The notes: generated from the sequence alone by a model not told the origin. A stretch of DNA of 42,691 nucleotides from Deltaproteobacteria bacterium (GCA_030262775.1 JAJSZP010000003.1:1-42691); one strand, 5' to 3'; shown: positions 9,005 through 31,466, counted from the first letter of the stretch. A program made the numbers and translations.

Positions 9005-9124
9005 GAGCCTCTTGCAGAAACAAATGAAACCACGTTGCCTGAGCTATATATTGTACAGTGGTATAAGCTGTAGCATATTATGCGATAGAGCCATGCTGAT
9101 CGGCGCTGTTTCTGCAAAAGGCTC
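9005..9124. mobile_element. MITE-like element (120 bp)
   Basis: TIRs GAGCCTCTTGCAGAAACA / TGTTTCTGCAAAAGGCTC (17/18 match), abutting the sulfatase stop codon. Confidence 0.75.
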
Positions 9125-10467
9125 TATAAATAACCTAAACCTTCCAACTGTTTCTTTATATCTTCATCTATAGGCGCTTCGTCCGATTGTCTCATTTCCG
9201 AAAGAACATCATCCAGTACATTTTTGATTTCTGCTCTTAATTGTTTGTGGATCTCTTTTTCCTGCCGGCTGATATTATTTGTTTCCCCGCTGTTTTTTCG
9301 AAGGTCAAAGAGCTTTTCACGACCAAACTGTGTGATTAAACCCAGCAGATCTCTTATCCTTATTCTGTGGTGTGATTGGAGTATCTTTGAATATGTTTTA
9401 AAATCCCAGTATTTAAGATATGTAGTAAGCAGTTTGTAATTATTTTTTATAACACATATCCTTGGGGAACCATCTGCAAAAGCTATTCTATCATTGTTCA
9501 GTTTCTGTCCTTTCAGTGCCTGAGCAAAGGATTGCCCGTCCAGTTTAAAATCAGTTTCATATTCCAGAAGTTCTATAATAGTTGGAAAAATATCCATTAA
9601 CTGAACTGTTTCGGGAACTTGAAAGCTGCCTGAATTATTATAGTCCACAACAAGCGGCACCTGAAGGACTTCATTGTACAGACCTATACCGTGCCCAATA
9701 TAATTATGCTCCATGAATGCCTGACCATGATCAGCTATAAGCATGAAAAGATAGTCTTCTGATTCTTCTTGAAGGACTTTGTGGATATCACTTACAAACC
9801 TGTCAATATGGTAAATGCCGGCATCATAGCATGCTATCAGATATTTAATTTCATTTTTTGACGGGATTTTAAGATGTGTGTTAATTTTACGTGAAATATC
9901 CATGATAGATGTTTTTTTTGTATGTTTGGAAGTCAGGATTTTTACTATTTCAGAATTATCAGGCACTGATGTTGCTTTGTCCAAAAACATTTGGACGTCC
10001 TGTTTGTCTGCAAAATAAGGTTCATGCACGTATTCTGCTGTGTGAAAAAACAAAAACGAATTTTTAGCTTTTTTTATCCATTCCCTGAATTCAGGCAAAG
10101 CTTTTTCATTAAGACTCAACTCCTTTGCTTCAGTAAAATGACTGCTGAACGCATTAGGATTTAGAAGTATTTTAAAAGGAGTAAAAATGCCGGTGAGATA
10201 TCCTTTTTCAGCAAGATACTCTGGCAGGACAACAAAATCACGATTTATTTTTTGGTCCATCCAGTTAATCATCAATGTTGGAGGATATTTACCCGCTATC
10301 ATTGAATAAAACGAAGGGGCTGTCCAGTTTGATTGTGCGTATGCATTTTTAAATAAAACGCTTTGACTTGCAATGGAATCAATATTTGGAGAAGTATTTT
10401 TATGATATCCATAGCAACCAAGATGATCAGCTCTTAAACAGTCAACAATAAGAATACAGATATTCAT
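9124..10467 (-). CDS. Sulfatase-like alkaline-phosphatase-superfamily protein
   Basis: DCLRADHLGCYGY, NWTAPS, HEPY, ADHG, GHG, VPL and a C-terminal QLEGLGYL. No canonical C/SxPxR motif. Confidence 0.88.
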   Translation of the reverse strand: MNICILIVDCLRADHLGCYGYHKNTSPNIDSIASQSVLFKNAYAQSNWTAPSFYSMIAGKYPPTLMINWMDQKINRDFVVLPEYLAEKGYLTGIFTPFKILLNPNAFSSHFTEAKELSLNEKALPEFREWIKKAKNSFLFFHTAEYVHEPYFADKQDVQMFLDKATSVPDNSEIVKILTSKHTKKTSIMDISRKINTHLKIPSKNEIKYLIACYDAGIYHIDRFVSDIHKVLQEESEDYLFMLIADHGQAFMEHNYIGHGIGLYNEVLQVPLVVDYNNSGSFQVPETVQLMDIFPTIIELLEYETDFKLDGQSFAQALKGQKLNNDRIAFADGSPRICVIKNNYKLLTTYLKYWDFKTYSKILQSHHRIRIRDLLGLITQFGREKLFDLRKNSGETNNISRQEKEIHKQLRAEIKNVLDDVLSEMRQSDEAPIDEDIKKQLEGLGYL

Positions 10468-10478
10468 TATTATGCTCC

Positions 10479-11561
10479 TTAATTCTTGTACGGTAGTCCT
10501 TCATAATCACCGGTTACCCAGCAGTGGGAGCAGACAGTGTCGCATTTTATGCTTTTATCTTTTGGGGAGGCAACTATCATTCGGCTGGAAAGATATTTTT
10601 CATTATTCCAAATAGTTTTAAAGCCATCCCTGAAAACATTTCCGAAATCGTTTTTAATTGGCCGAACATTACCGCAACAAGGCAACAAACCTCCATCATA
10701 ATTTATATAAGCGGAACGGTACAGCCAACTGCAACCTTGTGATTCGGGAACATTCTTTGATACTTCGTTATCTTTCGGGAACATGGTTGAGAACCATTCA
10801 TTCGACGCGTTATCATCCGGTATATTTGCCCTGATAAAACGAATTTGATCAATTCCCAATTCTTTTGCCTTGTCCCTGGCAAGTTCTATTTCATGTTCGT
10901 TAAATCCTGTGACACAATACTGCCAATCAACAAACGGAGTTGATGATTTAAGTCGCTTTTTTTCATCAATAACGCTTTTGATATTTTTCATGGCAAGTTC
11001 CTGATCACCATTTCCCATAAACTTACTATAGCTTTCCTGACTAACGCCGTGGCAAGAGAAAATCAGCACTTCAAGGCCGGATCTTACAATCTTTTCAGCA
11101 AGATCATGATCTTTGTAATTCATGTTCGAAGAAATAGCCACACCGATATTCTTTTTCGTTGCATATTCAACCATATCCAGGGATTCGGGGAAAAGCAAAG
11201 GTTCGCCATAACCATAAAGGTTAATCTTGAAAACAAATTGCCCGACTTCATCAACCAATTGTTTGAATTGTAAAAAAGTCATTCTACCGTATGGTCGTTC
11301 TCCATCCAGAGGTTTTCGGCGGTTATTATAACAGTATGCACATTTTAAATTGCATATATTTGTGGATTCTATTTTAAGAAGGTAAGGATAACTGGAAACA
11401 AAATCCTTTTTCAATAAACGATTGAATTCAGCTTGCACGAAATTTATCAATTTTTTGAATGTCATATGGCGAATAAATGCGAATAAATGCCGTTTAAAAA
11501 TATTAAATTTTACTACTATATTTATACCCCTTGTTGAAAAATTTAATTCAAAAATGCTCAT
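10479..11561 (-). CDS. Radical SAM protein with SPASM/twitch domain
   Basis: CNLKCAYC, GYGEPLL and C-terminal C..W...DG...PCC...GN...IWN...C...C..C. Confidence 0.9.
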   Translation of the reverse strand: MSIFELNFSTRGINIVVKFNIFKRHLFAFIRHMTFKKLINFVQAEFNRLLKKDFVSSYPYLLKIESTNICNLKCAYCYNNRRKPLDGERPYGRMTFLQFKQLVDEVGQFVFKINLYGYGEPLLFPESLDMVEYATKKNIGVAISSNMNYKDHDLAEKIVRSGLEVLIFSCHGVSQESYSKFMGNGDQELAMKNIKSVIDEKKRLKSSTPFVDWQYCVTGFNEHEIELARDKAKELGIDQIRFIRANIPDDNASNEWFSTMFPKDNEVSKNVPESQGCSWLYRSAYINYDGGLLPCCGNVRPIKNDFGNVFRDGFKTIWNNEKYLSSRMIVASPKDKSIKCDTVCSHCWVTGDYEGLPYKN

Positions 11562-11581
11562 TTTAATATTCCTTTATAAAA

Positions 11582-12916
11582 TTATTTATTCTGTAATAAA
11601 TAGTCGGCCATTTTAATTCCCTGATAGACAGCATTCGTGCTAAGGCAAAAATAATAACCACCTTGCCTCCCAATAGAAAAGAGATTGCTGAACTTGTGAA
11701 TCTCAGAAAATGTCTTTTCCATTTTTTCTTCATAATCAAGTCCATACACAGGCATGGCCTTATTCAGCTTAATAAGGTGTTTTTCTCGCAATTCACTTGA
11801 TTTATAAAGTCCAAGTTTTTCAATGTCTTTTACGGCCCGATCAATTATCTCCTCATCAGAAAAATTTTCATAATCCTTTGATAAACTACATTCCAAGTTT
11901 ATTCCCTCTCTGTCAGAAGGTGAACGTTTGCCAAAGATATTTCTGGGATAATAGATTCTGTTGAAAATAAGATCCGGGTCAGGATGATAAGTATAGACAA
12001 AAGGACGCTCTACTTTTTTTGTCATGTTATATGTCAGGTATACACTTAAAATTGTAACATATTCCAATTCAGGGCAATCATCTGCCCCAAGAAGAGAGTT
12101 GAGTTCATTAACTGAACCGGTCCAGATGATGTTCTTGATATCATATTTCCGGCCTTTGATTTCAACTCTTTTAATGCGATCCTGTTCTTTTTCAAGAGCC
12201 AGGGGGCCGCAATCCAAAATCGTATTTCCTTGTGCCTGCGTGTATTCGTTCCATAGACTTTTTATAAAAAGCTCAAACCCTTCTTCTGGATAATAGGTTT
12301 TGCAGCTTTTCATTTTGGACAACAGCATCTTTACAAGATCCAAAAGAGGCAATGGTTTAAAAGGTTCTTTTTGATTAAAAATATCTCTGTCAGCACGCAA
12401 ATACCAGTCCTTATGAACTCTGTCACCCGGCATCAGAGTTTTTTTAAGGAACAGATCCTTAAAAAGATCATTATAAAAGTCAATCCCGCTTTTACTTGAT
12501 ATCCAATGCATCAATGAATCGGGATCACCTTGGCCTTTGTTTTTTTTCAGCAAGCATGAAATAATCTGTTTTTTGTATCTCCAGGGATAAAAAGGCACCT
12601 GGAGCTGGTTTGGAAATTTCCAGTAACGGCCTTTTGCGTGGATGGCAAATTGAAACTTGCCTGAGATCATTTCTTCTTGTTTTAAAATGTCCAAAATAAA
12701 TTTATCGCATTCAGGATAAGGAGTCGAAAGAAAAACATGGGGTCCTATATCAAAAACAATGCCGTCGATTTTCAATGACCTGCAAAGCCCTCCAACTTTA
12801 TCATCCTTTTCAACAATAATTGTCTGCACACCGGCCTTGGCAAGCAAATATGCTGCGGTTAAAGCTGTCACTCCAGCACCGACGATCAACGTAATTTTAT
12901 CGGATTGTGAATTCAT
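11582..12916 (-). CDS. FAD-dependent oxidoreductase (UDP-galactopyranose mutase/protoporphyrinogen oxidase-like)
   Basis: VGAGVTAL, EKDDKVGGLCRS, FDIGPH and IGRQG.Y.Y. The probable start is MNSQSDK at 12916 rather than 13000. Confidence 0.8.
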   Translation of the reverse strand: MNSQSDKITLIVGAGVTALTAAYLLAKAGVQTIIVEKDDKVGGLCRSLKIDGIVFDIGPHVFLSTPYPECDKFILDILKQEEMISGKFQFAIHAKGRYWKFPNQLQVPFYPWRYKKQIISCLLKKNKGQGDPDSLMHWISSKSGIDFYNDLFKDLFLKKTLMPGDRVHKDWYLRADRDIFNQKEPFKPLPLLDLVKMLLSKMKSCKTYYPEEGFELFIKSLWNEYTQAQGNTILDCGPLALEKEQDRIKRVEIKGRKYDIKNIIWTGSVNELNSLLGADDCPELEYVTILSVYLTYNMTKKVERPFVYTYHPDPDLIFNRIYYPRNIFGKRSPSDREGINLECSLSKDYENFSDEEIIDRAVKDIEKLGLYKSSELREKHLIKLNKAMPVYGLDYEEKMEKTFSEIHKFSNLFSIGRQGGYYFCLSTNAVYQGIKMADYLLQNK

Positions 12917-13022
12917 AATATTATTACCGTCACTATAAAAGAAAAAAATAAAATAAAAGCAATTATTCACCACGCTCTCTTCTGGCATTCTTCGGGGCAA
13001 AATTTTTTATACAAGATAGGAT

Positions 13023-13295
13023 TCATTTGATTTGAATAGTGGCATCACTACCATATTTTCATCCGCTCTTCTTTTTATAGCGTTAATTGTCATGACAAAG
13101 TGGCATAGATATTTTTGAATATAAACCTCGAATATTTTAGCGAGTTTTACCATATTGGTTGTAATAAATTTTTTCTTTATCTTTGTTTGATTTAAGAATT
13201 AGAGGTTTCCCCAGGATCAGTCTGTGTGTATCGTCAGGCTGCCTGATCATGAATGTGGGCAGGATTACGGCAACCCAATCCTTTCCATCAAAAGC
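13023..13295 (-). pseudogene. Decayed, internally deleted copy of the acyltransferase 3' end
   Basis: Aligns by eye to 14923-15280 (e.g. TGAATAGTGGCATCACTACC and GCCTGATCATGAATGT-GGCAGGATTACGGCA), with a frameshift and deletions. Confidence 0.85.
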
Positions 13296-13399
13296 AAAAC
13301 CTGACACCCCACCTTATGGGAAACCGGAACAAAATTCTCCCAAAATCTTTTACTGTATCTGGATGGGGAAACATATTAATAAAAAATTCCATGTGTTAG

Positions 13400-13498
13400 G
13401 AGGCTCTTGCAGAAACACAAAAAAATCATGCCAACACACAATATATTGTTATTGTACTGAATAGAATTCTACATTTTGTGGGTATCTGCAAGAACCTC
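13400..13498. mobile_element. MITE-like element, same TIR family as 9005..9124
   Basis: TIRs GAGGCTCTTGCAGAAAC / GTATCTGCAAGAACCTC. Confidence 0.7.
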
Positions 13499-13510
13499 GT
13501 TAGTTTTGGC

Positions 13511-14818
13511 TTATAATATGTTGCATTGTTTCGATTTTGAAATAAATTTTTTGATTATTTTTTTAATACGCTGTAATTTTTCAAAAATACCAACACTATA
13601 AAATGTGGGGGCCATAAGGTCGGTTTGAAGATTTATTTTTTTTCCTCAATAGCCAACTTTGCTAAAGCTGTACTGGGTTCGATGCCTAATTTGGAAAATT
13701 GAATTCTTTTTAGTTTTTTTCCAAGAAAAATTTTTGCTTTCAAAATGAATATTGTTTGTCTAATCAAGGAGATCGGTCCTTGTCCGGGGATGCCTATTAT
13801 AAAATTATAACTTACTTCCATATTCTTTTTTCGTGCAATATTATAAGTATTCTGAATATGGCATGTTTGAATGTTCTTTCTTAACCACCTTAAACTTTTA
13901 TTACTGAATCCATCCGGTGAAAATTCAAACAATCGGCATCCTGCCTCAAGACACAGATCCACAAATCGTTCATCCATGAATTGTTCATTGAACCAAGCAA
14001 TCCAGTTAACATTAATTCCTCGTTTAATAATCTCTTTGCAGATTTTTTCTGCATGTGACGCCGGAATATTAAAAACATTATCTGCAAAGGCAAATTCTGT
14101 GACACCATGGATATAGCATAACTCCTCAATTTCTGCTACTATATCTTTAGGATCTCTAAGTTTTAATTTCGATCCATTGAGATAAGGGTAAGAACAATAA
14201 AAACATTGGAGAGAACATCCACGTTTGGATTGTACCCCAAGTGAGTAATTTCCTTTTTTGCAATTATCAAAAGGTATAAAGGTTCTATCAGGAATGATAC
14301 TGTTTTCAAAGTTGACAAAAGATCGATCACCGGTAAAAACTATTTCATTTTTATCTCTGATAAATATACCTTTAACATTATAAGGAGAATCAAGATTATC
14401 TAAAAGTTGTGGAAAAAATTCTTCACCTTCTAAAAATATTCCATATTTAATTTCAGGGGCTTCAGTCATGAATTGCCTTGGGTACATGGAAAATCCCGCG
14501 CCCCCTGCGATAATAGGAATATTCCATTTTGTTTTTTTTATTATTTTAATTGTATCCACAAGATATTTAAGAGGAAAAATTAACTCATTTAACACCTTGT
14601 CATATATATGTATGTTTCGAATAGAGATACCAACTACATCTGGGAGCAAACTTGTGTAATACATGCTCAGTAGAATGAAATGGTTGATCAACATCCAAGT
14701 TTTGATCTACTACTTTAACATCATGAGTTCCAACAAAGGAACATAGGTATGCTAATCCAAGTGGATAAATATATTCAACATGTTTACCTGCAAATAGCTG
14801 TATTAGCAGAATTTTCAT
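13511..14818 (-). pseudogene. Cobalamin-binding (class B) radical SAM with two frameshifts
   Basis: N-terminus MKILLIQ...YPLGLAYL shifts frame near 14643 into PDVVGISIRN, followed by SKRGCSLQCFYC. The C-terminus is recovered by adding one A at the T8 tract 13636-13643. Confidence 0.8.
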
Positions 14819-14922
14819 AATTAGATCTTTGGATAGTTGAAATTATTTTAAACCAAAAACAGGGGATAACTCATTAACCTTGTATCCTTATGGGGGGTGG
14901 ATTCCTTATTTTACAAGGTGAG

Positions 14923-15864
14923 TTATTTATTTGATGTGAATAGTGGCATCACTACCAAATTTTTATCCTCTCTTTTATTTATTGCGTTAATTGTCATTGC
15001 AAAGTGACATGGATATTTTTGAATATAATTCTCGAATATTTTTGCGATTTTCTCCATATTTGTTGTGATAAATTTTTGTTTATCTTTGTTTTGTTCAAGG
15101 ATTAGAGGCTGTTCCAGAATCAGCCTGTGTGTGTCGTCAGGTTGCCTGATCATGAATGTAGGCAGGATTACGGCACCTGTTAATGCGGCAATCCTGACAG
15201 GACCGGGTGAAAGGCTGGCCTGTCTGTCCAGGAAAGGGACTGTAACCCAATCCGTTCCGTCTCTTCCATCAAGAGCTATAGCGACCAGTTCATTGTTTTT
15301 CAGGGCTTTTATTACAGGCCTGACAGATCGATCAACATGTAGAAATTTAACCGGCAGGCCACTATTCTCTTTTACTTTAGTTTCATACATCCATTTCAAA
15401 ACCGGGCGATTTACTTCTGGTTTCCCTACAAGCTGGTTTATAGTAAACCCTTTAAATCCAAGGGCAGGCAAAATTGTCATGAATGAACCAAAATGAGACA
15501 GTTGAATAATAACCCCTTTTTCTTTTTTTAGAGCGGCATTTAAGTGTTCAACGCCTTCTATTGTTACGATCCGATCCAGATATTCCTTTGTAAGATTTCC
15601 CATAAAAAGGTTTTCTACATTCCGTTTTATATAAATTTCAAAACTTTTTTTAGCAATCCGGAGAGTATGATCTTTACTGTCTGTTTTGCATAGATCATCA
15701 ATGATTTTGCCAAGATTTTTCCGGTAGAATTTGAACAAAAGAGATGCAACAATCTTGGATAAAAAGAAAACAATTTTTACAGGAAGCATTTTTACAGCGA
15801 TTCGAAAAGGTCCCCAGAAGAACAAAAAAGCTAAATCAGTAATAACTATCTTTATTTTTCTCAT
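14923..15864 (-). CDS. LpxL/HtrB-like lysophospholipid (lipid A-type) acyltransferase
   Basis: IEGVEHL..AL..KGVI..SHFGSF, ALDG, VPFL and GP.RIA..TGA.ILP motifs. Confidence 0.85.
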   Translation of the reverse strand: MRKIKIVITDLAFLFFWGPFRIAVKMLPVKIVFFLSKIVASLLFKFYRKNLGKIIDDLCKTDSKDHTLRIAKKSFEIYIKRNVENLFMGNLTKEYLDRIVTIEGVEHLNAALKKEKGVIIQLSHFGSFMTILPALGFKGFTINQLVGKPEVNRPVLKWMYETKVKENSGLPVKFLHVDRSVRPVIKALKNNELVAIALDGRDGTDWVTVPFLDRQASLSPGPVRIAALTGAVILPTFMIRQPDDTHRLILEQPLILEQNKDKQKFITTNMEKIAKIFENYIQKYPCHFAMTINAINKREDKNLVVMPLFTSNK

Positions 15865-15905
15865 ATAGTTGCAACCAGAATTAAAACAAAATCAATGAAT
15901 TGGAA

Positions 15906-17336
15906 TTATTTTTTTGTTTTTTGAAATGATACAAAACCGGTTTTCTGATCATAGGCTGATTTTTTGCCCTTTATCCTTGCAAGGGTTCGAAAAACGAATA
16001 CAGCAGTCGGTTTCAAGACCCGTTCAAACATTCCGAGAAAACCATCTGCCAGCATATTCAAATATCGTTGAGAATATGGTCTGTAAAACATTCTTGCCAG
16101 GTCATTCTCATCTTTGGGAAACAGATCATCATCTTTTGAAATTAACCCCTCCTTCACCGCTATATCCCGAATATGTGTATCAGGTTCAATTTTGATATAA
16201 CTGATTCCACCGCCTCCTCTGCCAGGCAATGAAAGTTGAATTTTAAAAGGTAAAATTAATGTTTTTATTGTATCTGTTAAATTATAACCCGGCAACGATG
16301 TAAAAAGGCCAAAGCCTATACCAATGCCTTTTATTTTACGTGCCATGTTGATGGTATTTTTAATATCCTGCTCGGTCAATCCTTTTTTCAGGGCAGAAAG
16401 TCCTTTATTAGTGGCAGCATCAGGGGAGAAATCAATCTGAACAGCGCCAGCTTTTTTTAACAACTCCAAAAATTCTTCGGTTATTCCTTTCATATGGCAC
16501 CATACACCAAACTGAACATCAAGATTTCTCCTGATCATTTCCTCAAGAATTTTTCTTGCATGACCCTCCGGTACATTAAATACACTATCCACAAAAACAA
16601 ATCGCTCCATCCCGAACTGGTTGATAAAATATTCAATCTGATCAACAATGTCTTTTGTGTCACGGAGCCTGACTTGCCGGCCATTTAAATTAGGATAGGA
16701 ACAGTATGCACAATTAAGTAAGCATCCTCGCTTTGTCTGGATACCGATAATATTGTATGACGGACCCAGATAATTTTTCATGTCAATTACTTCCGTGGCT
16801 GTTTCAGGCATGGGAATTTCAGAAAATTCAGGCAATGGTCTGTCTCCAGTGTAAATAACCTGATTATTTTTCCGCATGAATATCCCTTTTACATTTTCTG
16901 GATTATTCAGGTTTGCAAGTAATTCTGGTGTGGATTTTTCACCCTCAAGGAAAATTCCGAAGTCAAATTCCGGAATTTTTTTCATGATAATTTCAGCAAA
17001 CATTGAAAACCCAGAGCCGCCTGCCAAAATTTTTATTTCCGGATTAATTTCTTTAATCGCCAGGACCATTGGCTTCACTGTATTAAAGTATACATGTTTA
17101 TTCCTGAAATTTGTTGTATCAATATTTCGAATTGAGATTCCGATTATATCAGGCTTGAATTTTTGCATTTCATTTTTCAGCTCATCCATAGCACTTGATA
17201 AAGGATACAGGTTAGGGTCGAATATTTTTACCTGATGATTTTTCAGGGCAGAAGCTATGTAGGTAAGGCCGATTGGCAAATTTGGGACTTGTGCTTCTCT
17301 TGTTCCCATATCCTGCTGAATGAGTAATACTTTCAT
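15906..17336 (-). CDS. Cobalamin-binding (class B) radical SAM protein
   Basis: PIGL.YIAS, PDIIGISIRNID, GGSGFS, GEKS, QTKRGCLLNCAYC and FVDSVFN. Confidence 0.92.
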   Translation of the reverse strand: MKVLLIQQDMGTREAQVPNLPIGLTYIASALKNHQVKIFDPNLYPLSSAMDELKNEMQKFKPDIIGISIRNIDTTNFRNKHVYFNTVKPMVLAIKEINPEIKILAGGSGFSMFAEIIMKKIPEFDFGIFLEGEKSTPELLANLNNPENVKGIFMRKNNQVIYTGDRPLPEFSEIPMPETATEVIDMKNYLGPSYNIIGIQTKRGCLLNCAYCSYPNLNGRQVRLRDTKDIVDQIEYFINQFGMERFVFVDSVFNVPEGHARKILEEMIRRNLDVQFGVWCHMKGITEEFLELLKKAGAVQIDFSPDAATNKGLSALKKGLTEQDIKNTINMARKIKGIGIGFGLFTSLPGYNLTDTIKTLILPFKIQLSLPGRGGGGISYIKIEPDTHIRDIAVKEGLISKDDDLFPKDENDLARMFYRPYSQRYLNMLADGFLGMFERVLKPTAVFVFRTLARIKGKKSAYDQKTGFVSFQKTKK

Positions 17337-17343
17337 AATTATC

Positions 17344-18854: not shown

Positions 18855-18890
18855 CCCCCCTCAATTTGTTCGGATTTTTTAGTTACCTAT

Positions 18891-19006
18891 TTAAGGCGGG
18901 GCACTTTTAGTACGCTGAACAGAGGTTTTTAGTAAATAATCAAGCATAATTAAAGCGTTAGCAAGCTTTTGCCAACTGCTTGAATTTACAGACTGTCCCG
19001 CCTTAA
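18891..19006. mobile_element. MITE-like element (116 bp)
   Basis: TTAAGGCGGGGCA / TGTCCCGCCTTAA inverted ends (12/13 match). Confidence 0.6.
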
Positions 19007-19079
19007 GTGTGTAGCCTATTGCAATTTGACAATTAGCTGGCCATTTTAGCCTCATGCAAATTTTGGAATTCCAATACTA

Positions 19080-20945: not shown

Positions 20946-20988
20946 TGTTTTTTTCTTCCGAATAGCCTGTTTTATAATAATATTGATA

Positions 20989-23019: not shown

Positions 23020-23112
23020 ATTTTAAATTTTACTTTCACCGTTTTACTTTCACTGATGAGAAGAGAAATGATTTTATTGCCAATCAGTCACTCAATACTA
23101 CTCAACTAATAT

Positions 23113-23652: not shown

Positions 23653-23745
23653 TTTACCCTCAGAATCCTAAATTTTCTCCCATTTGTTAACAAAAAGCGC
23701 AAGTATAATAATCAGACTATTCTATAGTTTGTTAATTCCTCAATT

Positions 23746-24513: not shown

Positions 24514-24593
24514 CTCAATTCCTATATCAATTTAAATTAAATTAAATTTCGAATAATTCTTAGCCACAGACACGCACTAACGAACACAGACTT

Positions 24594-26129
24594 TCATTGA
24601 ATCATAAAATTCCTGATTTCACTTGGCTCTTCAGGGGCTGTGGGCCCGGGTTTACCCAACACCCTCCAGTAAATAATCCCATTAATTTGTTCCATCCTCT
24701 TGATTATCTTCCATATTCGTTGCCACGCGTCAACCTGAATGGCATCGGTCGAAGTATAGGTCATCAAGGATTGCCTTGGAACGGTGAGAGTGGGAAATCC
24801 GAAAACAAATGAGGATGTAGGTGAAAACTCCAGCTTAAAACGATACGTGGAATCGGCCTCCCATGCAAATGTCGCCGGTGGCGACTCCGGCAGGACCGCG
24901 CCATTATCTGGAGTCAGCAGGGTAATCTCATCAGTGGCGCTATAATACCAGCTTAAAAACTCGTCCCATTGTGTATCTGCGGGAAAATCTATTATCGAAC
25001 CGTTGTAATCGCTGTCAAAACCGGTTTCTGTCTCAGGAAAATAGATGGCCAAACCGTGTGAATTGGGCAGCCAGGTGCCGTGATATTCAGCTATTACAGC
25101 AGACTCAACGGCAGTCATAACATCAAAAGCTGTCGTCTGAATATCAGGGTCAGAAGATTCAATATAGAGCAAATCGGCAAAATGGTACAGGTCGATATTT
25201 TCAGGGCAATTATATTCCTGACTACCAGCCCTGGCAGCAGTAATCTCTGACTTATTCGAATCCATGGCTGCAGCAAGATCGTTAACGCAAGAAGCAATCG
25301 TATCCATAATACTTAAGTCAATTGCTGATTGCGTAGTTTCACTTGCAGAGCCATAAGACTCACCATAACGATTTACTATGGTTGCTCCCAGATCCGTGGC
25401 GCTCATGGTCGGTAAAGCCGACAGATCTTCTATAATTGTATCATAAGGCCATCCGTCACCAGGTTCGGAAGCTTCGGAAGCGACCATGACATTAGCAAGA
25501 TCCTTTATTTCATAGGCTACCTCTGTCATGCTCATTAAACAGGCATCAAAACCTGCAAGATCAACTTGTTGCCTTTCCGTTTTAATAGTATTAAGCGCAC
25601 TTTTCACCTCGCTCATATACAGACTGTCCCCGCCACTTGTATCATCCCAACAAACCGCCCTAAGGATAGGACGTTCAGGCACATATTCGACGCGCCAGCC
25701 TCCTCCGTGGTTCCACAGAATTACAGCATAGTTGCGGGCCGGATAGTTATCCATAGACCACTTGATAAAATCTATAAGAGTCTGAGGATCAGCCATATTA
25801 ACTTCTCGGCCGCCTGTTCCGTCACCCCAGTCGGAAATGGCATTTGCCACTGTGGGAGTCATGCCGGCCGTTACCAGAAACCTCTGGCAATCTGTCCAGT
25901 TGTCAAAACTGCTGTCTTCGCCGGGAATTCTGTCGAATTGAACCACTATGTTCACATTGGAATCAGAGCCTACAGATGACATCTCCAAAAAATCATCTAT
26001 GCCGGCGTCCTCTAAATTGTTATCTCCATCCAGATAGACCATAAATGTCCAATCAGCACACTTAGCATATTGAGGTAAAAACAGACCAAAAGCCAACAAA
26101 TAAAATAAAACAGACAATATTCTTTTCAT
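24594..26129 (-). CDS. Secreted clostripain-family (C11) cysteine peptidase with a C-terminal beta domain
   Basis: Signal peptide, WTFMVYLDGDNNLE, NHGGGW (catalytic His), FDACLM (catalytic Cys) and GLAIYFP. Confidence 0.92.
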   Translation of the reverse strand: MKRILSVLFYLLAFGLFLPQYAKCADWTFMVYLDGDNNLEDAGIDDFLEMSSVGSDSNVNIVVQFDRIPGEDSSFDNWTDCQRFLVTAGMTPTVANAISDWGDGTGGREVNMADPQTLIDFIKWSMDNYPARNYAVILWNHGGGWRVEYVPERPILRAVCWDDTSGGDSLYMSEVKSALNTIKTERQQVDLAGFDACLMSMTEVAYEIKDLANVMVASEASEPGDGWPYDTIIEDLSALPTMSATDLGATIVNRYGESYGSASETTQSAIDLSIMDTIASCVNDLAAAMDSNKSEITAARAGSQEYNCPENIDLYHFADLLYIESSDPDIQTTAFDVMTAVESAVIAEYHGTWLPNSHGLAIYFPETETGFDSDYNGSIIDFPADTQWDEFLSWYYSATDEITLLTPDNGAVLPESPPATFAWEADSTYRFKLEFSPTSSFVFGFPTLTVPRQSLMTYTSTDAIQVDAWQRIWKIIKRMEQINGIIYWRVLGKPGPTAPEEPSEIRNFMIQ

Positions 26130-26208
26130 TTTTTTTGCCCTTCTCCTTTTAAGCGTAGTGCCTAATACTACAAAATTTTCTATTTGAGAAAGTAAAGAAT
26201 TGCTCCAC

Positions 26209-26595
26209 TCATTTTAGAATAATTTTTTTTACCTTAATATATGGCGCTTTATCTTTAGACAATAGTAATTGACCCTTAACAACAATTTCAGTACCCAAAG
26301 TAACATTCTTTCCAAGCCCGGCTGGAAACTTTCCCGTGACATAGATTGCCCCTGTTGAGTCTTTAACCACCCAGTCGCTTCGGGTGATTAACGGGTTTTT
26401 CAGGCCTCCTCCCTGCCATCCACGATATCGTCCGCATACAGTGATTACCTCGTTCTCATACTTTTGGATATCTTTCCATATCTCGCCGATTGGCGTGTAT
26501 TCCAGGGGAGCATCCTGTTCATTTGACTGTACCCTGCCACAGGAAATCAATATCGTCAAGATCATAAAGATAAGTGTAAATTTTTTGTTTATCAT
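26209..26595 (-). CDS. Small lipoprotein, probable OB fold
   Basis: Lipobox LISC; I.EI......YE...ITV.G and D.TG.IYV.G pattern. Confidence 0.65.
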   Translation of the reverse strand: MINKKFTLIFMILTILISCGRVQSNEQDAPLEYTPIGEIWKDIQKYENEVITVCGRYRGWQGGGLKNPLITRSDWVVKDSTGAIYVTGKFPAGLGKNVTLGTEIVVKGQLLLSKDKAPYIKVKKIILK

Positions 26596-26661
26596 TGATT
26601 ATCACAAAATTTTTTGTATCTGTTCACGATTTATTTGATCCGGTTCTAAAATTTATCATAC

Positions 26662-28776
26662 TCAGTCTGCCATCTTCTCTATATTACACAAAAGCCCCCG
26701 CAGTTGATAGCTGCCAAAGGCCGGATCATAAGGCGGAGCGCTTGATGTTAAGACGTTAGCATTAGACTCCCATACTCCAAAATCCGGCCCCTCTCTTTCC
26801 GGAAACCACCATCCGTGATCAATATTAACTATTCCGCTTTGTATATCCTCTGTTACCACTGCTTTCATCTTTATCCTGCCACGGGGAGAACTCACGTAAA
26901 TCCAGTCTCCGTCAGCGATTCCATGAGAATCAGCTATGGCTGGATGGAGCTCAGCAGTTGGATCAGGCCTTTTTTTTCTCAAGGATTTTATCTGGCGATG
27001 TTCGCTGTGAAAAAACTCAAGCCTTCTGCTTCCAGTTGTTAGCACGTACGGGAAATCGTTTTTAAGCTCAGGTTGATTTATAGGACTCTCTGGTGGTTCT
27101 TTATATGTTGGCATTGGATCATAACCCAACCTTTCTAAGGCGTTGCAGAAAAACTCTACTTTCTTTGAAGGTGTCCTGAATCCATTTTTCTCGAACTTTC
27201 GGTACTCGTGGGGCGGGAACACCATGGATCTCTTTTTTAGTTCTTCAAACGTCAGGCCTAATGGCTCAAGTCGGTAATTTAGAATATCTTCCATTGTTTC
27301 TTCAGAACCAGGCAGGTTCAATCGTTTTGCCAAGTCTATTAAAATCTCTTCATCCTGCCTGCAAAGACCAACCTGAACCACTTTTTGCTGAGCAAAAACA
27401 GCGTTTTCAGCTACATAGGGGAGTTCAATTGTTTGATTGACTTCCGGCCAGAATGCAGCAGGTAAAAAATAATCAGCCAAAGCTGCTGTTGGAGTCATAA
27501 ACATATCAGCAACGACAAGTAAATCCAGATTTAACAGAGAATTATAAACTTCTTTTGAATTTGCTATTGTAACCATAGGATTACTGCCAAAGTTTAGAAG
27601 AGCTCTTATTGGATAGGGCTTGCCTGTTCGCATTGCTTTAAGTACGCCGGGAATATGTGCTGAAGGCAGAAATGCTCTGAATCCTCCCAACAGCTTAAAT
27701 TGTTCCCCGCCTATTCTTTTCTTTATCATCCCCTTTGGCAATTTGTCTTTTAAGACCGGATAAGGCCTGATAATATTCATGCCTAAGATATCACTGCCTG
27801 GTACATCTATATTACCGGTTAAACCTCTAAGCAAAGAAATTGCTCTAACCGTTTGCAAACTATTTGGAGTGTGTTCGATAGCTACGCCCCATTCTATAAC
27901 TGACGGCTTTTCAAGTGCATATTGCCTTGCCGCGGCGACAATTTTTTCAGCAGGAACCCAGGTAATTTCTTCAGCCCATTTGGGCGTATAGTTTGACACA
28001 TGTTCCTTTAGTCTATTGAATCCTTTTGTCCATCTTTCAACAAATTCCTTATCATAAATGCCTTGATTGATAATTACATGGGCCATGGCAAGAGCGAGTG
28101 CATCATCTGTGCCCGGTCTTGTCGGCAGCCACATTTTACAGCGTTTTGCTGTTTCAGATCTTCTAGGATCAATCGCAATGCCAAAACTGCCGGCCTTTAA
28201 TGCCCTTTTTACCGGAAACGATAGTTCCCCGTCCGGGCCAGTAACAACGGGATTATGTCCCCAAAACAAAATGGTCTTAGGGGTGACCTTGCCGTAGTAG
28301 TCTGCAACCACAAACCCGCCATAGGTCAGATGGCTTACTGTTATTCTGGGAATAAAACAATTCGCAAGTCCTGGCTCATACCAATTGGGAGTTCCAAGAG
28401 AATTGGCAAAACGTATAACATGAGTAAAATGGTGCCTGCCTGTTCCCTGACCTATGGCAATAGACTCAGGGCCTGATTCCTGCCTGATACTGTCAAGCTT
28501 ATTCGCAATTTCGTCTAAGGCCGTATCCCAACTAATTTCTTTCCAGCTATTAGAACCTCTGCTTCCAACCCTTTTCAAAGGGGTCAAAATCCTGGAAGGA
28601 TGATATATAATTTCAGGAGTAGAAAGTCCTTTAATACACATCTGTCCACGGTTAAAAGGAGAGTCGGGATTTGGCTTTACTCTTGTAAGCTTACCATCTT
28701 TTACAAATAAAAGAGCGCTGCATCCACCATGGCATACTCTGCAAACGCTTTTAAAAATTTCTTCTTTATCTTTCAA
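26662..28776 (-). CDS. Molybdo/tungsto-bis-PGD oxidoreductase, acetylene-hydratase-like clade
   Basis: CRVCHGGC...C [4Fe-4S] motif, ISWD.ALD, WG.NP, IDPRRS.TA, PGTD.AL and C-terminal HSEHRQI/HGWW. No Tat signal. Confidence 0.9.
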   Translation of the reverse strand: MKDKEEIFKSVCRVCHGGCSALLFVKDGKLTRVKPNPDSPFNRGQMCIKGLSTPEIIYHPSRILTPLKRVGSRGSNSWKEISWDTALDEIANKLDSIRQESGPESIAIGQGTGRHHFTHVIRFANSLGTPNWYEPGLANCFIPRITVSHLTYGGFVVADYYGKVTPKTILFWGHNPVVTGPDGELSFPVKRALKAGSFGIAIDPRRSETAKRCKMWLPTRPGTDDALALAMAHVIINQGIYDKEFVERWTKGFNRLKEHVSNYTPKWAEEITWVPAEKIVAAARQYALEKPSVIEWGVAIEHTPNSLQTVRAISLLRGLTGNIDVPGSDILGMNIIRPYPVLKDKLPKGMIKKRIGGEQFKLLGGFRAFLPSAHIPGVLKAMRTGKPYPIRALLNFGSNPMVTIANSKEVYNSLLNLDLLVVADMFMTPTAALADYFLPAAFWPEVNQTIELPYVAENAVFAQQKVVQVGLCRQDEEILIDLAKRLNLPGSEETMEDILNYRLEPLGLTFEELKKRSMVFPPHEYRKFEKNGFRTPSKKVEFFCNALERLGYDPMPTYKEPPESPINQPELKNDFPYVLTTGSRRLEFFHSEHRQIKSLRKKRPDPTAELHPAIADSHGIADGDWIYVSSPRGRIKMKAVVTEDIQSGIVNIDHGWWFPEREGPDFGVWESNANVLTSSAPPYDPAFGSYQLRGLLCNIEKMAD

Positions 28777-28809
28777 AATTAGTACCCGTTCACAGCAGAG
28801 AGCGCAGAG

Positions 28810-29967
28810 CTAAGAGAGAAAAGATTTTTCCGATCTTACTCTAAGCTCCACGCTCTTATTAAAACGCGCAAGAATCTTGCAGTTTTCTTCGATAATTCTC
28901 TCCGGCGATCCAAGGAGATCGCACAGGTCATCAGGACCGCCAACAATATCTGTCACAATTTCATCAAGATGAATTCGCCCATTCACACACAGGCTGAGAA
29001 TTTTGGCAAATGCTCCGCCAAGATGGCCGCGTGATCCAACCAAAGACACAGCATTGGTAATCATGTGGTCCATAGCATCCAAAACCAAAGGCTCACCGCT
29101 TCTCGCCAGGAGGGCAATACGGCCGTTGGCATTCAAGCGCCGGAATGCCCTGCTAACGTTATCCATATACCCGGAGGCCTCAATAAGCACATCGACGGAA
29201 CACGGACCATGGTCAAAGAATTCTTCAATATCGTACACATGATCGCTCCACTTCATCGCGAGCTTTCTTCGAAATTCAACAGGCTCAACAACGTGGACAC
29301 AGGAAGCACCGAAAACAACCTTGCTCAACATTGCAGAAAAAATTCCTATTGGACCGGCTCCAAAAACAAGAACCACGTCTCCTGGCCCTACACCAGTGTT
29401 CTGACAAGCAACATAAGCGACACCTGCGGGCTCAATGCATGCAGCCGCTCTCAGTCCCCTGTCGCTTTCCGCCAACGCAGAAACATCATGGCTCAGCATC
29501 GCAGGTACATCAACCACTGTGCCAAAGAGTCCATCCTTTTCCAGTCCCAACAATTGTGCATGACAACACTGATTGAACTGACCTCTCCGGCACACATCAC
29601 AGTGATGGCAAACAATGATTGACTCAAACGTAACACAGTCGCCTGGTTTCACATGGTAAACATGAGAACCAGCTTCAAGTACCCTGGCAACTCCTTCGTG
29701 CCCGATGATTCGGCCTTCAGGAGGAATCTCTGCCGGTGCGGAGCATCGAATATAGCCTGTATCAGGATTCGTCTCTACCAAATGCACGTCTGTACCGCAC
29801 AATCCTGCATAGATCATCTCCACCCTGATTTCATCAGAACGTAAGTGGCCCAGCTCACGTTTCTCAATGGAAACACGCGGATTTTGATAAATTTGGTGAG
29901 GCCCCGGATCAACAACTCCCTCTACAGGCTTTCTATCTGCACGAAGAACAACAACTTTAGATTTCAT
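28810..29967 (-). CDS. Zn-dependent MDR dehydrogenase, scyllo-inosose 3-dehydrogenase (IolM)-like
   Basis: GLCGTD, GHEG, structural Zn C..C..C.......C, GAGPIG and GSRGH, plus an IolM-like N-terminal extension and GYI insert. Confidence 0.85.
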   Translation of the reverse strand: MKSKVVVLRADRKPVEGVVDPGPHQIYQNPRVSIEKRELGHLRSDEIRVEMIYAGLCGTDVHLVETNPDTGYIRCSAPAEIPPEGRIIGHEGVARVLEAGSHVYHVKPGDCVTFESIIVCHHCDVCRRGQFNQCCHAQLLGLEKDGLFGTVVDVPAMLSHDVSALAESDRGLRAAACIEPAGVAYVACQNTGVGPGDVVLVFGAGPIGIFSAMLSKVVFGASCVHVVEPVEFRRKLAMKWSDHVYDIEEFFDHGPCSVDVLIEASGYMDNVSRAFRRLNANGRIALLARSGEPLVLDAMDHMITNAVSLVGSRGHLGGAFAKILSLCVNGRIHLDEIVTDIVGGPDDLCDLLGSPERIIEENCKILARFNKSVELRVRSEKSFLS

Positions 29968-31466
29968 GCCCCCTCCATCTCCAACGCCTTTTTATCTATT
30001 TTTCCACTCCCGATCTTAGGTAGAAATTTTCTGATCTCGACTATTCGGGGCACCTTGTATTGAGCTATTCTCCCTCTACAAAAGGCAAATATTTCTTTTT
30101 CTGTTATTTCCCTTCCATTCTTTGTCACTATAATGGCCTTAGGTACCTCGCCTCTGAGATCATCATTTGAAGCTATTACCACCGTCTCTTTAATATCCGG
30201 ATGTTCCATTAAGGCCAACTCAATCTCAAGTGGATATACCTTAAGCCCGGCAACCTTCATCAGCCCGGCTTTTCTGTCAACAAAGTAAATATTCCCTTCT
30301 CTATCCCTTTTGCCTAAATCACCACTGTAATACCAACCATTTTTAAAACAATTTTTACTGTTCATGGGATATTTATAGTAGCCATTAACAACTGCCGATC
30401 CCTTGAATATTAATTCTCCTATCTCGCCGGCGCCAACCAGCTCATCATTTTCATCCACTATTTTTACTTCATAGGACATGCAGGGTTTTCCAACCGAACC
30501 GGGAACTATCGGCCCTCCCGGCACCTGAGTAATGGCAATGCCGGTTGTTTCCGTGCTCCCCCATACAGGTATAATAGGAACGCCGATCTTTTGCCTAAAA
30601 CGCTCAACGAGTTCCGGCCTGGTATGCATTCCCCCGCTTTCCGGAACCCTGAGAGAACTAAGATCATATTCATAATGATCAAGCACATCCAGCAATTTTT
30701 CGTACATGGGCGCCAACCCCATCATACAGGTAACACTATGATCAGAAATGACCTTTGCTAAAGACTTTGGATATATCCTGTCAAGCAAGACCATAGTCCC
30801 TCCTAAATAGAGGGGTCTTGCAATTAGTTCATGAGGATGGGCGAATGGTGCAAAGATGCAAAGGTGGATATCATTTGCGGTAAGTTTAAGGGCATCAACT
30901 GCAGCTATTGTATTCCAGTATATCTGAGCGTGAGTAGTAATAGCGCCTTTAGGATTGCCTGTAGAGCCGGATGTATAGTTTAGATAAACAATATCGTTGT
31001 CTTCAGCTCTGAAACTAAAATTCTCGGATTTTTTATCTTTTATTATCTTGTCCCAGGAAATTTCTTCTTCGTTCTTATTATTGCCTGCAACTACCACTGG
31101 AATTTCTAAGCTCGAAGGAATGGATCTTTTCGCAAGGTTCAAAAACTGTTCGTGGACAATAAGGCACCTGGGGTCAATATTTTGCAATAAGACATTGATC
31201 TTATCATCCAGAAGCTCAAAATTTATGGGAACAACTACGCCTTGAACTTTTGCTATGGCCAGAAAACTGATAACCAGTTCAGGAACCCTGGGGAGCATCA
31301 GCCCAACTTTATCTCCCTTATTGACCCCCATCTCCACCAAAGCATCGGCCAGCTTGTTTACCGTCTGATTTAGTTCTCTGTAACTGATTTTTGTGTTATA
31401 ATAAATTATAGCTATCTTGTCAGGAATATCTCTTGCGTGTATCTCAAGCATCTCAACCAGAGTCAT
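29964..31466 (-). CDS. AMP-binding acyl-CoA synthetase
   Basis: YTSGSTGNPKG, WGSTET, SGDLG, DR, YPLEIE and LPK.GSGKI. ATGA overlap with the dehydrogenase. Confidence 0.93.
   Translation of the reverse strand: MTLVEMLEIHARDIPDKIAIIYYNTKISYRELNQTVNKLADALVEMGVNKGDKVGLMLPRVPELVISFLAIAKVQGVVVPINFELLDDKINVLLQNIDPRCLIVHEQFLNLAKRSIPSSLEIPVVVAGNNKNEEEISWDKIIKDKKSENFSFRAEDNDIVYLNYTSGSTGNPKGAITTHAQIYWNTIAAVDALKLTANDIHLCIFAPFAHPHELIARPLYLGGTMVLLDRIYPKSLAKVISDHSVTCMMGLAPMYEKLLDVLDHYEYDLSSLRVPESGGMHTRPELVERFRQKIGVPIIPVWGSTETTGIAITQVPGGPIVPGSVGKPCMSYEVKIVDENDELVGAGEIGELIFKGSAVVNGYYKYPMNSKNCFKNGWYYSGDLGKRDREGNIYFVDRKAGLMKVAGLKVYPLEIELALMEHPDIKETVVIASNDDLRGEVPKAIIVTKNGREITEKEIFAFCRGRIAQYKVPRIVEIRKFLPKIGSGKIDKKALEMEGA

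Follow-up and report, generated by a model that had tools for sequence, protein, structure and literature searches.

Aggregation and syntrophy in anoxic marine sediments and seeps, and the biomarker record kept there, are shaped by surface polysaccharides and glycolipids. Among the described systems for their synthesis, the closest to the locus studied here are the Wza/Wzc/Wzy loci for capsules or exopolysaccharides (EPS), of the group 1 capsule or colanic-acid type; we know of none having a bis-molybdopterin guanine dinucleotide (bis-MGD) enzyme or arrays of B12-binding radical S-adenosylmethionine (B12-rSAM) and LpxL-like genes. We analyzed a stretch of 42,691 bases, hereafter the window, being the whole of contig C3 in a 2.57-Mb metagenome-assembled genome (MAG), 92% complete, of a marine-sediment, sulfate-reducer-like deltaproteobacterium. 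With a priming polyprenyl glycosylphosphotransferase (PGT), Wza, Wzc, CpsB, a Wzy_C-domain protein and several glycosyltransferases, all encoded on one strand, the window resembles those loci. It differs from the XrtA/PEP-CTERM type of EPS locus, as the exosortase gene lies elsewhere in the genome, on contig C80, and the corresponding NCBIfam models all scored below cut-off in the window (Wza 120.6 against 180; Wzc 137 against 279 and 134 against 231; ligase 247 against 592).

Parts of the gene set found among the export genes have been noted in other surroundings. Passages of a 2009 study (Rattray et al., PMC2649909) place radical SAM enzymes, a phytoene-dehydrogenase-like flavoprotein, a CoA ligase and a glycosyltransferase in fatty-acid-synthesis-like clusters of Kuenenia, Desulfotalea, Geobacter and Pelobacter, and passages of PMC9902471 report 'ladderane' clusters of unknown function (an antiSMASH class) in Desulfobacterota MAGs. 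As far as those passages go, the window resembles such 'ladderane-type' clusters with regards to its B12-rSAM enzymes, amine-oxidase-type flavoprotein, CoA ligase and glycosyltransferases, a combination with no known product other than in anammox bacteria, but differs in having these genes within a Wza/Wzc export locus and paired with LpxL-family acyltransferases; the term 'acyltransferase' is absent from the main text of PMC2649909. HpnJ, of the hopanoid side-chain pathway HpnI-HpnK-HpnJ (bacteriohopanetetrol cyclitol ether), has been proposed in passages of PMC13459092 to contract a lipid-linked glucosamine to a cyclitol, a reaction that is still a hypothesis. HpnJ-like B12-rSAM genes follow the Mo gene, or lie beside GT2 genes, in relatives of the window, but the scores of such products (383 bits in G030 and 428 bits on contig C27 of the own genome) were below the cut-off of 578, none was found in the corresponding part of the window, and no hopanoid genes were noticed. 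Literature searches, which covered main texts, gave no paper in which a polysaccharide locus is connected with an acetylene-hydratase-family enzyme or with arrays of B12-rSAM and LpxL genes. A preceding reading of the window, made from the sequence only, had called the locus the best candidate there for an undescribed system; the overlap of part of the gene set with the 'ladderane-type' clusters, as noted in the passages of PMC2649909 and PMC9902471, qualifies this.

We hold, with middling confidence, that the window carries a Wza/Wzc/Wzy-type surface-glycan locus built of separable, recurrent modules and having oxygen-independent tailoring. Genes were called by Pfam and NCBIfam profile scans of 30 window open reading frames (ORFs), and every long ORF lies on the minus strand. 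All ten enzyme genes that the sequence-only reading had listed between 9124 and 31466 were recovered, and they share their strand with the genes for Wza, Wzc, the PGT and the Wzy_C protein (Table 1). One part of the locus, here called module A, is conserved and higher in GC content, and consists of the PGT, an acyl-CoA ligase, a Zn-dependent dehydrogenase (ADH) and a W/Mo enzyme, usually followed in relatives by an HpnJ-like radical SAM enzyme, and then of Wza, a HEAT-repeat protein, Wzc and CpsB. The other, module B, is low in GC content and exchangeable, and comprises two cassettes: (i) two B12-rSAM genes and an LpxL-like gene, and (ii) genes for a flavoprotein, a SPASM radical SAM enzyme and a phosphatase-fold enzyme of a threonine type; it is accompanied by a WbuX-like amidotransferase, a carbamoyltransferase and a GDSL protein. 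In GC content, the ligase-ADH-Mo block (0.44) exceeds both the remaining locus (0.35-0.39) and the genome (0.40). The grouping of these gene families is more than chance, as they are found together again in other genomes, described below, and this co-occurrence points to genes that are functionally tied to the assembly of a glycan or glycolipid.

Table 1. Features of the window, listed in the order of transcription. Scores are in bits where so given; 'cut-off' is that of the named model.
Position	Strand	Feature	Evidence
33060-40939	-	Three GT2 glycosyltransferase genes, then a GT2-GT4 fusion	Pfam
35335-36501	-	AAA_14/DUF4143 ATPase, inserted among the glycosyltransferase genes	Pfam
31585-33006	-	PGT, first gene of module A	Bac_transf 224 bits; TIGR03025 406.8, cut-off 295.6
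29964-31466	-	AMP-forming acyl-CoA ligase, module A	AMP-binding 277 bits; best NCBIfam PRK06187 391, below cut-off 476
28810-29967	-	Zn-dependent medium-chain dehydrogenase (ADH), IolM-like or threonine-dehydrogenase-like	ADH_N and ADH_zinc_N; best PDB match 3ip1
26662-28776	-	Cytoplasmic W/Mo bis-MGD enzyme, acetylene-hydratase family, module A	Molybdop_Fe4S4, Molybdopterin and Molydop_binding domains
26209-26595	-	Small ORF, 128 aa, hydrophobic N-terminus, lipoprotein-like	No family match
24594-26129	-	Clostripain-family (C11) peptidase, hydrophobic N-terminus	Peptidase_C11 211.7 bits
23746-24513	-	Wza-type outer-membrane polysaccharide export protein	Poly_export and SLBB
23113-23652	-	HEAT-repeat protein, hydrophobic N-terminus, lipoprotein-like, between wza and wzc	HEAT_2 112 bits
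20989-23019	-	Wzc-type chain-length regulator/tyrosine autokinase	Wzz, GNVR, AAA_31; TIGR01007 167.7, cut-off 108
20267-20945	-	CpsB/CapC-type PHP tyrosine phosphatase, in three frames in the assembly	CpsB_CapC, profile positions 1-105 of 234; intact (228 aa) in L003
19080-20198	-	WbuX-like PP-loop N-acetyl-sugar amidotransferase	TIGR03573 155, below cut-off 203, full length; TGGGRDS PP-loop; two CxxC pairs
17344-18854	-	B12-rSAM 3, frame-split	B12-binding and Radical_SAM domains
15906-17336	-	B12-rSAM 2, intact, 476 aa	B12-binding 53.1 bits; Radical_SAM 57.9 bits; CX3CX2C
14923-15864	-	LpxL-family acyltransferase, N-terminal hydrophobic segments	Lip_A_acyltrans 81.7 bits, cut-off 22.3
13633-14842	-	B12-rSAM 1, N-terminal part in another frame	B12-binding and radical SAM domains
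13022-13289	-	3' remnant of a second LpxL-family gene	tblastn 72% to LpxL residues 256-313, 53% to 202-265
11582-13000	-	FAD flavoprotein, amine-oxidase-type	NAD_binding_8 and Amino_oxidase; PRK07208 121, below cut-off 389
10479-11561	-	Radical SAM/SPASM enzyme	Radical_SAM and SPASM; CX3CX2C at 70-77
9124-10467	-	Alkaline-phosphatase/sulfatase-fold enzyme, no signal peptide	Sulfatase 110 bits; starts directly with the catalytic core
6739-8601	-	NodU/CmcH-type carbamoyltransferase	Carbam_trans_N 308 bits; Carbam_trans_C 237 bits
5468-6520	-	GDSL-like acylhydrolase or acyltransferase	Lipase_GDSL_2 26.9, below cut-off 32.9
4418-4825	-	SxtJ-like small membrane protein	PF19588 24.3, cut-off 24.4; 78% in L003
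1783-3549	-	Secreted protein, 588 aa, hydrophobic N-terminus	No Pfam or NCBIfam match; 57% ortholog beside Wzy in G030
318-1775	-	Wzy_C-domain membrane protein, polymerase or ligase, 11 hydrophobic segments	Wzy_C 33.1, cut-off 31.7

For module A, a search with the Mo enzyme through 401 genomes of the class gave orthologs (61-73% identity) in 11 other genomes and none in the 20 genomes of the window's own family; genomes (G), loci (L), contigs of the own genome (C) and sequencing runs (X) are numbered by us. Within 1.5 kb to either side, each of the 11 orthologs had an ADH ortholog (nine, with the ADH gene directly upstream of the Mo gene) or a ligase ortholog (two) as neighbor. Larger contexts of 10-20 kb could be inspected for ten of them, the eleventh being on a 3.3-kb contig, and in eight of the ten the block was preceded by PGT and ligase genes (in the other two, the contig stops right upstream of the ADH gene); Wza followed within the stretch inspected in 8/10. 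The ligase orthologs adjoining PGT, ADH and Mo genes in relatives were 41-53% identical to that of the window. A sample of the phylum gave nine further Mo orthologs from other classes (63-82% identity), three having an adjacent ADH gene and one of those three the order Ligase-ADH-Mo-Wza; in G621 and G428, the Mo ortholog lies behind the GT2 gene of a glycolipid-type block, with an HpnJ-like gene also present in one of them. In the window itself the 3' end of the ligase gene overlaps the start of the ADH gene by 4 bases and the ADH-Mo gap is 34 bases, a spacing that fits one operon. The sequence-only reading had proposed to look for homologs occurring together, and with glycan loci, elsewhere; the ligase, ADH and Mo/W genes do accompany a PGT gene and usually wza-wzc, and the B12-rSAM and LpxL genes likewise travel together downstream of wzc in other genomes. 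Two glycosyltransferase-like genes directly upstream of PGT-ligase-ADH-Mo-HpnJ in G030 (locus L065, 3348-4660) scored above the cut-offs of TIGR04282 and TIGR04283, families named 'arsenosugar biosynthesis glycosyltransferase' at NCBI.

The slot after the Mo gene, which in 6/10 relatives is taken by the HpnJ-like radical SAM gene (383 bits in G030), holds a small ORF and a C11 peptidase gene in the window. The same arrangement was seen in G611 (L094), at identities of 78% for Mo, 43% for the small ORF and 73% for C11, and a C11 gene (59% identity) follows the Mo gene in G356 (L034); a secreted clostripain-type peptidase encoded in a glycan operon is thus shared by these three. The HEAT-repeat gene downstream keeps its position in L003/L073, G141 and G051. 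By analogy, the HpnJ-like enzyme of relatives together with the IolM-like dehydrogenase of the window hints at a cyclitol, thereby keeping alive that idea of the sequence-only reading, with the dehydrogenase scoring 216 bits, below the cut-off of 450, for the NCBIfam equivalog of IolM (scyllo-inosose 3-dehydrogenase).

With regards to the Mo/W enzyme, the best solved relative is the acetylene hydratase of Pelobacter acetylenicus (PDB 2e7z; E 3e-115, residues 11-694), with which it shares the type of a monomeric, cytoplasmic bis-MGD enzyme, an N-terminal [4Fe-4S] motif, a Cys metal ligand and a neighboring Lys. The two differ at the Asp beside the second cluster cysteine, which is His in the window enzyme (motif C-R-V-C-H-G-G-C), as in 29/29 homologs inspected, and at Ile142, replaced by Phe, as well as in gene context, which here is a glycan locus and not acetylene fermentation. 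A true acetylene hydratase could be ruled out by this His at the position of Asp13, which we take to be the catalytic residue of that enzyme. No transmembrane-like segment was found in the protein, and neither partner subunits nor an export signal were found for ADH or the Mo/W enzyme. Paralogs of about 35-52% identity were found in 112/401 genomes of the class at E<=1e-120, often two per genome. Acetylene-hydratase-family paralogs carrying CxxCHGGC (loci L043-L060) are thus very common in the class and make up a large uncharacterised family.

The first cassette of module B centers on B12-rSAM 2, which has an intact frame and a CX3CX2C motif (CLLNCAYC, residues 205-212) and is 39% identical to B12-rSAM 1. 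No named equivalog reached its cut-off (BzaD 242 against 450 and TIGR04072 239 against 360, both for B12-rSAM 2; PhpK 84 against 600), and the TIGR04072 score sets the window apart from the 'ladderane-type' clusters. At E<=1e-70, the B12-rSAM 2 family was found in 7/400 other genomes of the class, and six of these seven are among the 11 Mo-ortholog genomes, as compared to 1/389 among the others. In G039, G119, G139 and G379 the gene lies on the contig of module A, and G141, which also has the Mo ortholog, has a contig-end fragment of it (74% over 133 residues) behind CpsB. Mo-ortholog genomes from other classes carried the family in 5/5 tested, two of them on the contig of the Mo gene. An LpxL-family gene is directly beside the B12-rSAM 2-family gene in 5/8 loci of other genomes; the B12-rSAM 3 family is directly upstream of it in G039, G041, G119 and G076, the full order of window genes B12-rSAM 3, B12-rSAM 2 and LpxL being repeated in the first three and varied in G076. 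A scan of named genomes with the B12-rSAM gave one locus, L003, in a MAG labelled 'uncultured Desulfocapsa sp.'. Tailoring of phosphonates (PhpK/Fom3-type) was rejected as a function, as no phosphoenolpyruvate mutase (PF13714) was found in the own genome, 92% complete, with the control matching in 11/14 genomes.

The LpxL-like protein resembles LpxL, LpxM and PatA in that Lip_A_acyltrans is well above cut-off, the N-terminal hydrophobic segments could serve as an anchor and a His is conserved (His124, in SHFGSF), but differs from them in that the NCBIfam equivalogs are far below cut-off (best 84 against 248), no acidic residue is found at His+5, and its gene lies in a glycan locus beside B12-rSAM genes. 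PatA-type acyltransferases place the catalytic acid elsewhere. A housekeeping-type LpxL of the own genome, scoring 197 bits, is encoded between two KdtA-like genes on C6, and LpxC is also present, so that the window copy is seen as a specialised paralog rather than the lipid A enzyme; housekeeping lipid A acylation by the window LpxL was therefore rejected.

Paralogs of this cassette occur on contig C27 of the same genome (L018 1-20000), where one strand encodes, in the first part, a Wzx-like protein, LpxL, a DegT aminotransferase, a SPASM radical SAM enzyme, GT9, a sulfotransferase, an EF-hand/BamE-like protein and DUF362 with ferredoxin and, in the second part, a B12-rSAM enzyme (47% identical to B12-rSAM 2; TIGR04072 226 against 360), a ketosynthase, a chain length factor (CLF), an acyl carrier protein (ACP), LpxL (35%), an HpnJ-like radical SAM enzyme (428 bits), a family-less protein of 861 aa, GT2 and PEGA. 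This pairing of paralogous B12-rSAM and LpxL with ketosynthase, CLF and ACP ties the two to acyl-chain chemistry and, considered with the divergence of the window LpxL and its own B12-rSAM neighbors, points to a modified acyl chain being transferred to a lipid-linked sugar. In G039, G041, G119, G379, G139 and G076, the B12-rSAM/LpxL arrays are followed by LpxL, GT9, DUF362/ferredoxin, HpnJ-like radical SAM and GT2 genes that are 58-63% identical to those of C27, the C27-type block there being contiguous with the glycan locus as one super-locus; C3 and C27 are separate contigs in the present assembly.

The flavoprotein that opens the second cassette has a fold of the protoporphyrinogen-oxidase, UDP-galactopyranose-mutase or carotene-desaturase kind, three that Foldseek did not separate on a weak AlphaFold model (pLDDT, the model's confidence score, 61.7) and among which eukaryote-type mutases tied with protoporphyrinogen oxidases; an Atlas look-up gave generic protoporphyrinogen-oxidase or amine-oxidase clusters only. 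A UDP-galactopyranose mutase as such was rejected, since TIGR00031 reached 24 bits against 304, over the Rossmann part only (residues 38-91), and no GLF Pfam match was found. The SPASM enzyme has C-terminal cysteines at 277, 295, 296, 340, 344 and 347, and its gene adjoins that of the flavoprotein in 5/7 flavoprotein-bearing lineages, directly following it in G030, the L074 group, L077 and L078. It was also considered as a maturase of the W/Mo enzyme, TIGR04317 being its best NCBIfam match, and rejected: the score was 105 against 380, the gene pairs with the flavoprotein gene, and 4.2 Mb separate it from the Mo gene in G030. A metagenome scan with the flavoprotein alignment gave six loci from about four lineages.

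Comparison of the loci that share module B showed how its parts are combined. L003/L073 has CpsB, B12-rSAM 2 (85%), LpxL (77%), the flavoprotein (84%), the phosphatase-fold enzyme (80%) and Wzy, and after Wzy an SxtJ-like gene, a carbamoyltransferase gene (88-90%) and a GDSL gene, while its Wza, Wzc and Wzy share only 41-46% identity with their counterparts in the window, a difference that points to exchange of cassettes. The two do not count as independent, L073 being a metagenome contig 99.995% identical to L003 over 18.7 kb. G030 has Wza, Wzc, LpxL (65%), the flavoprotein (77-78%), the SPASM enzyme (83%), the phosphatase-fold enzyme (73%), the 588-aa protein (57%) and Wzy, without any B12-rSAM gene, and the lineage L074/L075/L076 has Wzc, LpxL, B12-rSAM and Wzy, then the flavoprotein (48%), the SPASM enzyme (60%) and an HpnJ-like radical SAM enzyme.

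We propose that tailoring, using oxygen-independent chemistry, would take place at the cytoplasmic face, before polymerisation and export. LpxL-family enzymes acylate lipid-linked sugars, and the membrane-anchored LpxL-like enzyme would O-acylate a sugar in either the lipid-linked unit or a glycolipid anchor, with acyl-ACP, or acyl-CoA from the ligase, as probable donor. Class-B radical SAM enzymes most often methylate unactivated carbons; two of them would here alkylate, most probably methylate, such carbons of the acyl chain or the sugar. The amidotransferase, the carbamoyltransferase and the phosphatase-fold enzyme may add acetamidino, carbamoyl and phospho-type substituents, respectively, and a precursor that the ligase or the PGT has committed could undergo keto/hydroxyl (hydratase-type) chemistry by ADH together with the W/Mo enzyme. 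All of these substrates and products are predictions from gene content, motifs and co-occurrence, and it may be a glycolipid, not the exported polymer, that accepts the substituents.

Several findings weigh against this reading. No tailoring enzyme reaches the cut-off of a curated family, the residue at His+5 of the LpxL-like protein is Met, and no HpnJ-like gene was found after the Mo gene or elsewhere in the window, which, unlike the 'ladderane-type' clusters, also lacks ketosynthase and ACP genes. In a further difference from the described Wza/Wzc/Wzy loci, none of the 30 window ORFs gave a Polysacc_synt-type match for a Wzx flippase; a Wzx-like candidate is found at the end of C27. The flavoprotein is rare, found at >=41% identity in 2/400 genomes of the class and in 0/20 of the own family, and it was found in none of the five Mo-ortholog genomes from other classes that were tested, which shows that the modules are not obligately linked. 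In G030, module A is 4.2 Mb away from the LpxL-flavoprotein cassette and has no wza/wzc within 10 kb, while still lying behind a PGT and two glycosyltransferase genes. The co-occurrence counts come from kin genomes, which are not independent, and thereby overstate the statistical support. The frames of B12-rSAM 1 (near 14614-14656), B12-rSAM 3 (in an A9 run at 18037-18045) and cpsB (in an A8 run near 20630-20640, and near 20359) are broken in the assembly, so that of the three B12-rSAM genes claimed by the sequence-only reading all are present and two are interrupted. Contigs of four sediment or seep metagenome runs (X1, X3, X5 and X6), aligned on 13000-21100, finally revealed relatives without some of these genes: an abundant one in X5 (depth 123), with a joint 17353->19061, lacks B12-rSAM 3, and others in X3 and X6, with a joint 13272->15180, have a single LpxL and lack B12-rSAM 1 and the LpxL remnant. 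B12-rSAM 1 and 3 are thus accessory within the population. The assumption of a single pathway, made by the sequence-only reading, must be split, as the co-occurrence of ligase, ADH and Mo genes, and of B12-rSAM and LpxL genes, stands, while their unity does not, there being at least three separable modules in varied combinations and 4.2 Mb apart in G030.

A rather unlikely alternative, yet the one that survives best, is that the tailoring acts on a membrane glycolipid, lipid-A-like or otherwise acylated and perhaps the anchor or acceptor of a polymer, with the Wzy_C protein as the ligase or polymerase that joins them. The acylation of lipid-linked sugars by LpxL-family enzymes would agree with this, as would the GT9 genes (heptosyltransferase family) and their companions behind the arrays of relatives and the ketosynthase, CLF, ACP, DegT aminotransferase and sulfotransferase that the C27 paralogs add; the Pfam model Wzy_C is, moreover, named 'O-antigen ligase', and the match in the window, just over cut-off, is to a domain that does not separate polymerase from ligase. 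However, the cassette is placed inside a Wza/Wzc export locus in the window, L003 and G030, with wzc/cpsB on one side and Wzy on the other, and other contigs carry the canonical lipid A genes and the better-scoring LpxL.

Distinctly unlikely, we believe, is that B12-rSAM 1, B12-rSAM 3 and cpsB are pseudogenes decaying after shuffling of cassettes, leaving B12-rSAM 2, LpxL, the flavoprotein, the SPASM enzyme and the phosphatase-fold enzyme as working core. The frameshifts in three genes would fit this, as would the remnants of LpxL (in a 630-base 'empty' stretch after B12-rSAM 1), of the sulfatase-fold gene (3609-4247) and of SxtJ-like genes (108-281 and 8785-8898), the relatives in X5, X3 and X6 and the single B12-rSAM gene of L003. 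Against it, the one-letter differences of the run contigs, judged by the lengths of contigs crossing the first two breaks, have the right sign for restoring the frames: in three runs, contigs spanning the B12-rSAM 1 break have one letter fewer than the window (that of X1 being near-identical, with 1 mismatch in 597), an X1 contig over the A9 run is one letter longer, and a one-letter deletion at 20359 was found at full or near-full contig depth in X3, X5 and X6. The breaks may therefore be assembly errors or minority variants, and the B12-rSAM 3 family is conserved directly upstream of the B12-rSAM 2 family in four other genomes. At 41375-42001, two ORFs in overlapping frames appear by eye to be one gene for a membrane-bound hydrolase split by a frameshift; being one more broken frame, it strengthens the suspicion that the assembly contains indels. 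Around 18946-19061, the WbuX-like and B12-rSAM 3 genes are separated by a gap of 226 bases that contains a terminator-like hairpin on the minus strand (18976-18957), and contigs of all four runs often break off or diverge there, which suggests a recombination junction between cassettes.

It is improbable that the ligase, ADH and W/Mo genes form a small metabolic operon, for activation, hydration and oxidation, that merely neighbors glycan loci. Such an operon could explain the deviating GC content of the block, the abundance of the Mo family in the class, the 5/18 paralogs of 41-52% identity that have a distantly similar AMP-ligase as neighbor, without glycan genes in the stretch inspected, and the distance of the G030 block from wza/wzc. 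Those 18 paralogs had, however, an ADH neighbor in 0/18, whereas orthologs of >=61% identity are always beside an ADH or ligase ortholog and in 8/10 contexts behind a PGT; the block is placed between PGT and wza in several families and classes, and even the blocks of G030, G621 and G428 follow a PGT with two glycosyltransferases (G030) or a glycolipid-type GT2 (G621, G428). Finally, desulfation or remodelling of sulfated glycans by a sulfatase with its anaerobic sulfatase-maturating enzyme (anSME), as the Sulfatase domain beside a radical SAM/SPASM gene might imply, can be dismissed as very improbable on nucleophile motif and gene pairing, since C/S-x-P-x-R is replaced by T-A-P-S-F here and in L003, G030 and G076, the protein has no signal peptide, no anSME family was among the best 25 NCBIfam matches, and the SPASM-flavoprotein pair occurs with no sulfatase-fold gene seen in the L074 group, L077 and L078, L003 having the sulfatase-fold gene and no SPASM gene. 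The motif WTAPSF aligns to CAPSR of the arylsulfatase 6hhm, with Thr at the nucleophile position, and WT[AL]PSF is kept in the three relatives compared (G076 having a 26%-identical homolog); Thr in place of the formylglycine Cys indicates a Thr-nucleophile member of the alkaline-phosphatase superfamily, not a formylglycine sulfatase, and hence that the SPASM enzyme is not an anSME.

Returning to the modular glycan locus, a bolder and tentative version of it, which we consider possible but doubtful, is that the PGT, CoA ligase, ADH, W/Mo enzyme, HpnJ-like and B12-type radical SAM enzymes, LpxL-like enzymes, GT2/GT9 and DUF362 make up a single, so far unrecognised and strictly anaerobic pathway, by which marine-sediment Desulfobacterota would produce a glycoconjugate that is lipidated, C-alkylated and possibly carbocycle-bearing. 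If so, this would be the first W/Mo pterin enzyme in the biosynthesis of a glycan or glycolipid, and the missing product of the non-anammox 'ladderane-type' clusters would be supplied. Should the association be functional, it would mean that glycans can be decorated wholly by oxygen-independent radical and pterin chemistry, that a testable role is found for a large, uncharacterised branch of the acetylene-hydratase family, and that a concrete acceptor, glycan or glycolipid, can be named for the 'ladderane-type' radical SAM/flavoprotein clusters of sulfate reducers, one that could be looked for by nuclear magnetic resonance (NMR) and mass spectrometry.

Among the accompanying genes, that of the WbuX-like protein has an ortholog (72%) directly after wzc in G051. 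The protein resembles the WbuX/WbpG amidotransferases of acetamidino sugars in being matched over its full length by that family as its best and in having the PP-loop, but its score is below cut-off and no HisH/HisF-like partner, which WbuX/WbpG-type enzymes need, was found among the window ORFs. A GDSL homolog follows the carbamoyltransferase gene also in L073. The SxtJ-like and carbamoyltransferase genes form a conserved pair, seen in L003 and, upstream of PGT, in G039. The secreted 588-aa protein shows the motifs 'HNEP' and 'ITEGH', read by eye from the translation, which presumably recall the NEP- and TEG-type motifs of clan-A glycoside hydrolases, and it may be the locus's own glycan hydrolase.

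A promoter and terminator scan of 8500-28400 gave no usable operon boundary, as terminator-like sites numbered 16 (15.2 expected) and promoter-like sites 84 (65.6 +/- 8.1 expected), and Rfam gave 0 matches across the window. Window DNA was contained in 13 runs, all of them sediment, cold-seep or microbial-mat metagenomes and none an RNA run that could report on expression. The AAA_14/DUF4143 ATPase has weak paralogs (23-24% identity) on three other contigs of the own genome. Contig C160 of that genome carries the rest of a second SxtJ-like gene together with a second carbamoyltransferase gene (89-94% identical) and thus probably continues C3 at its low end.

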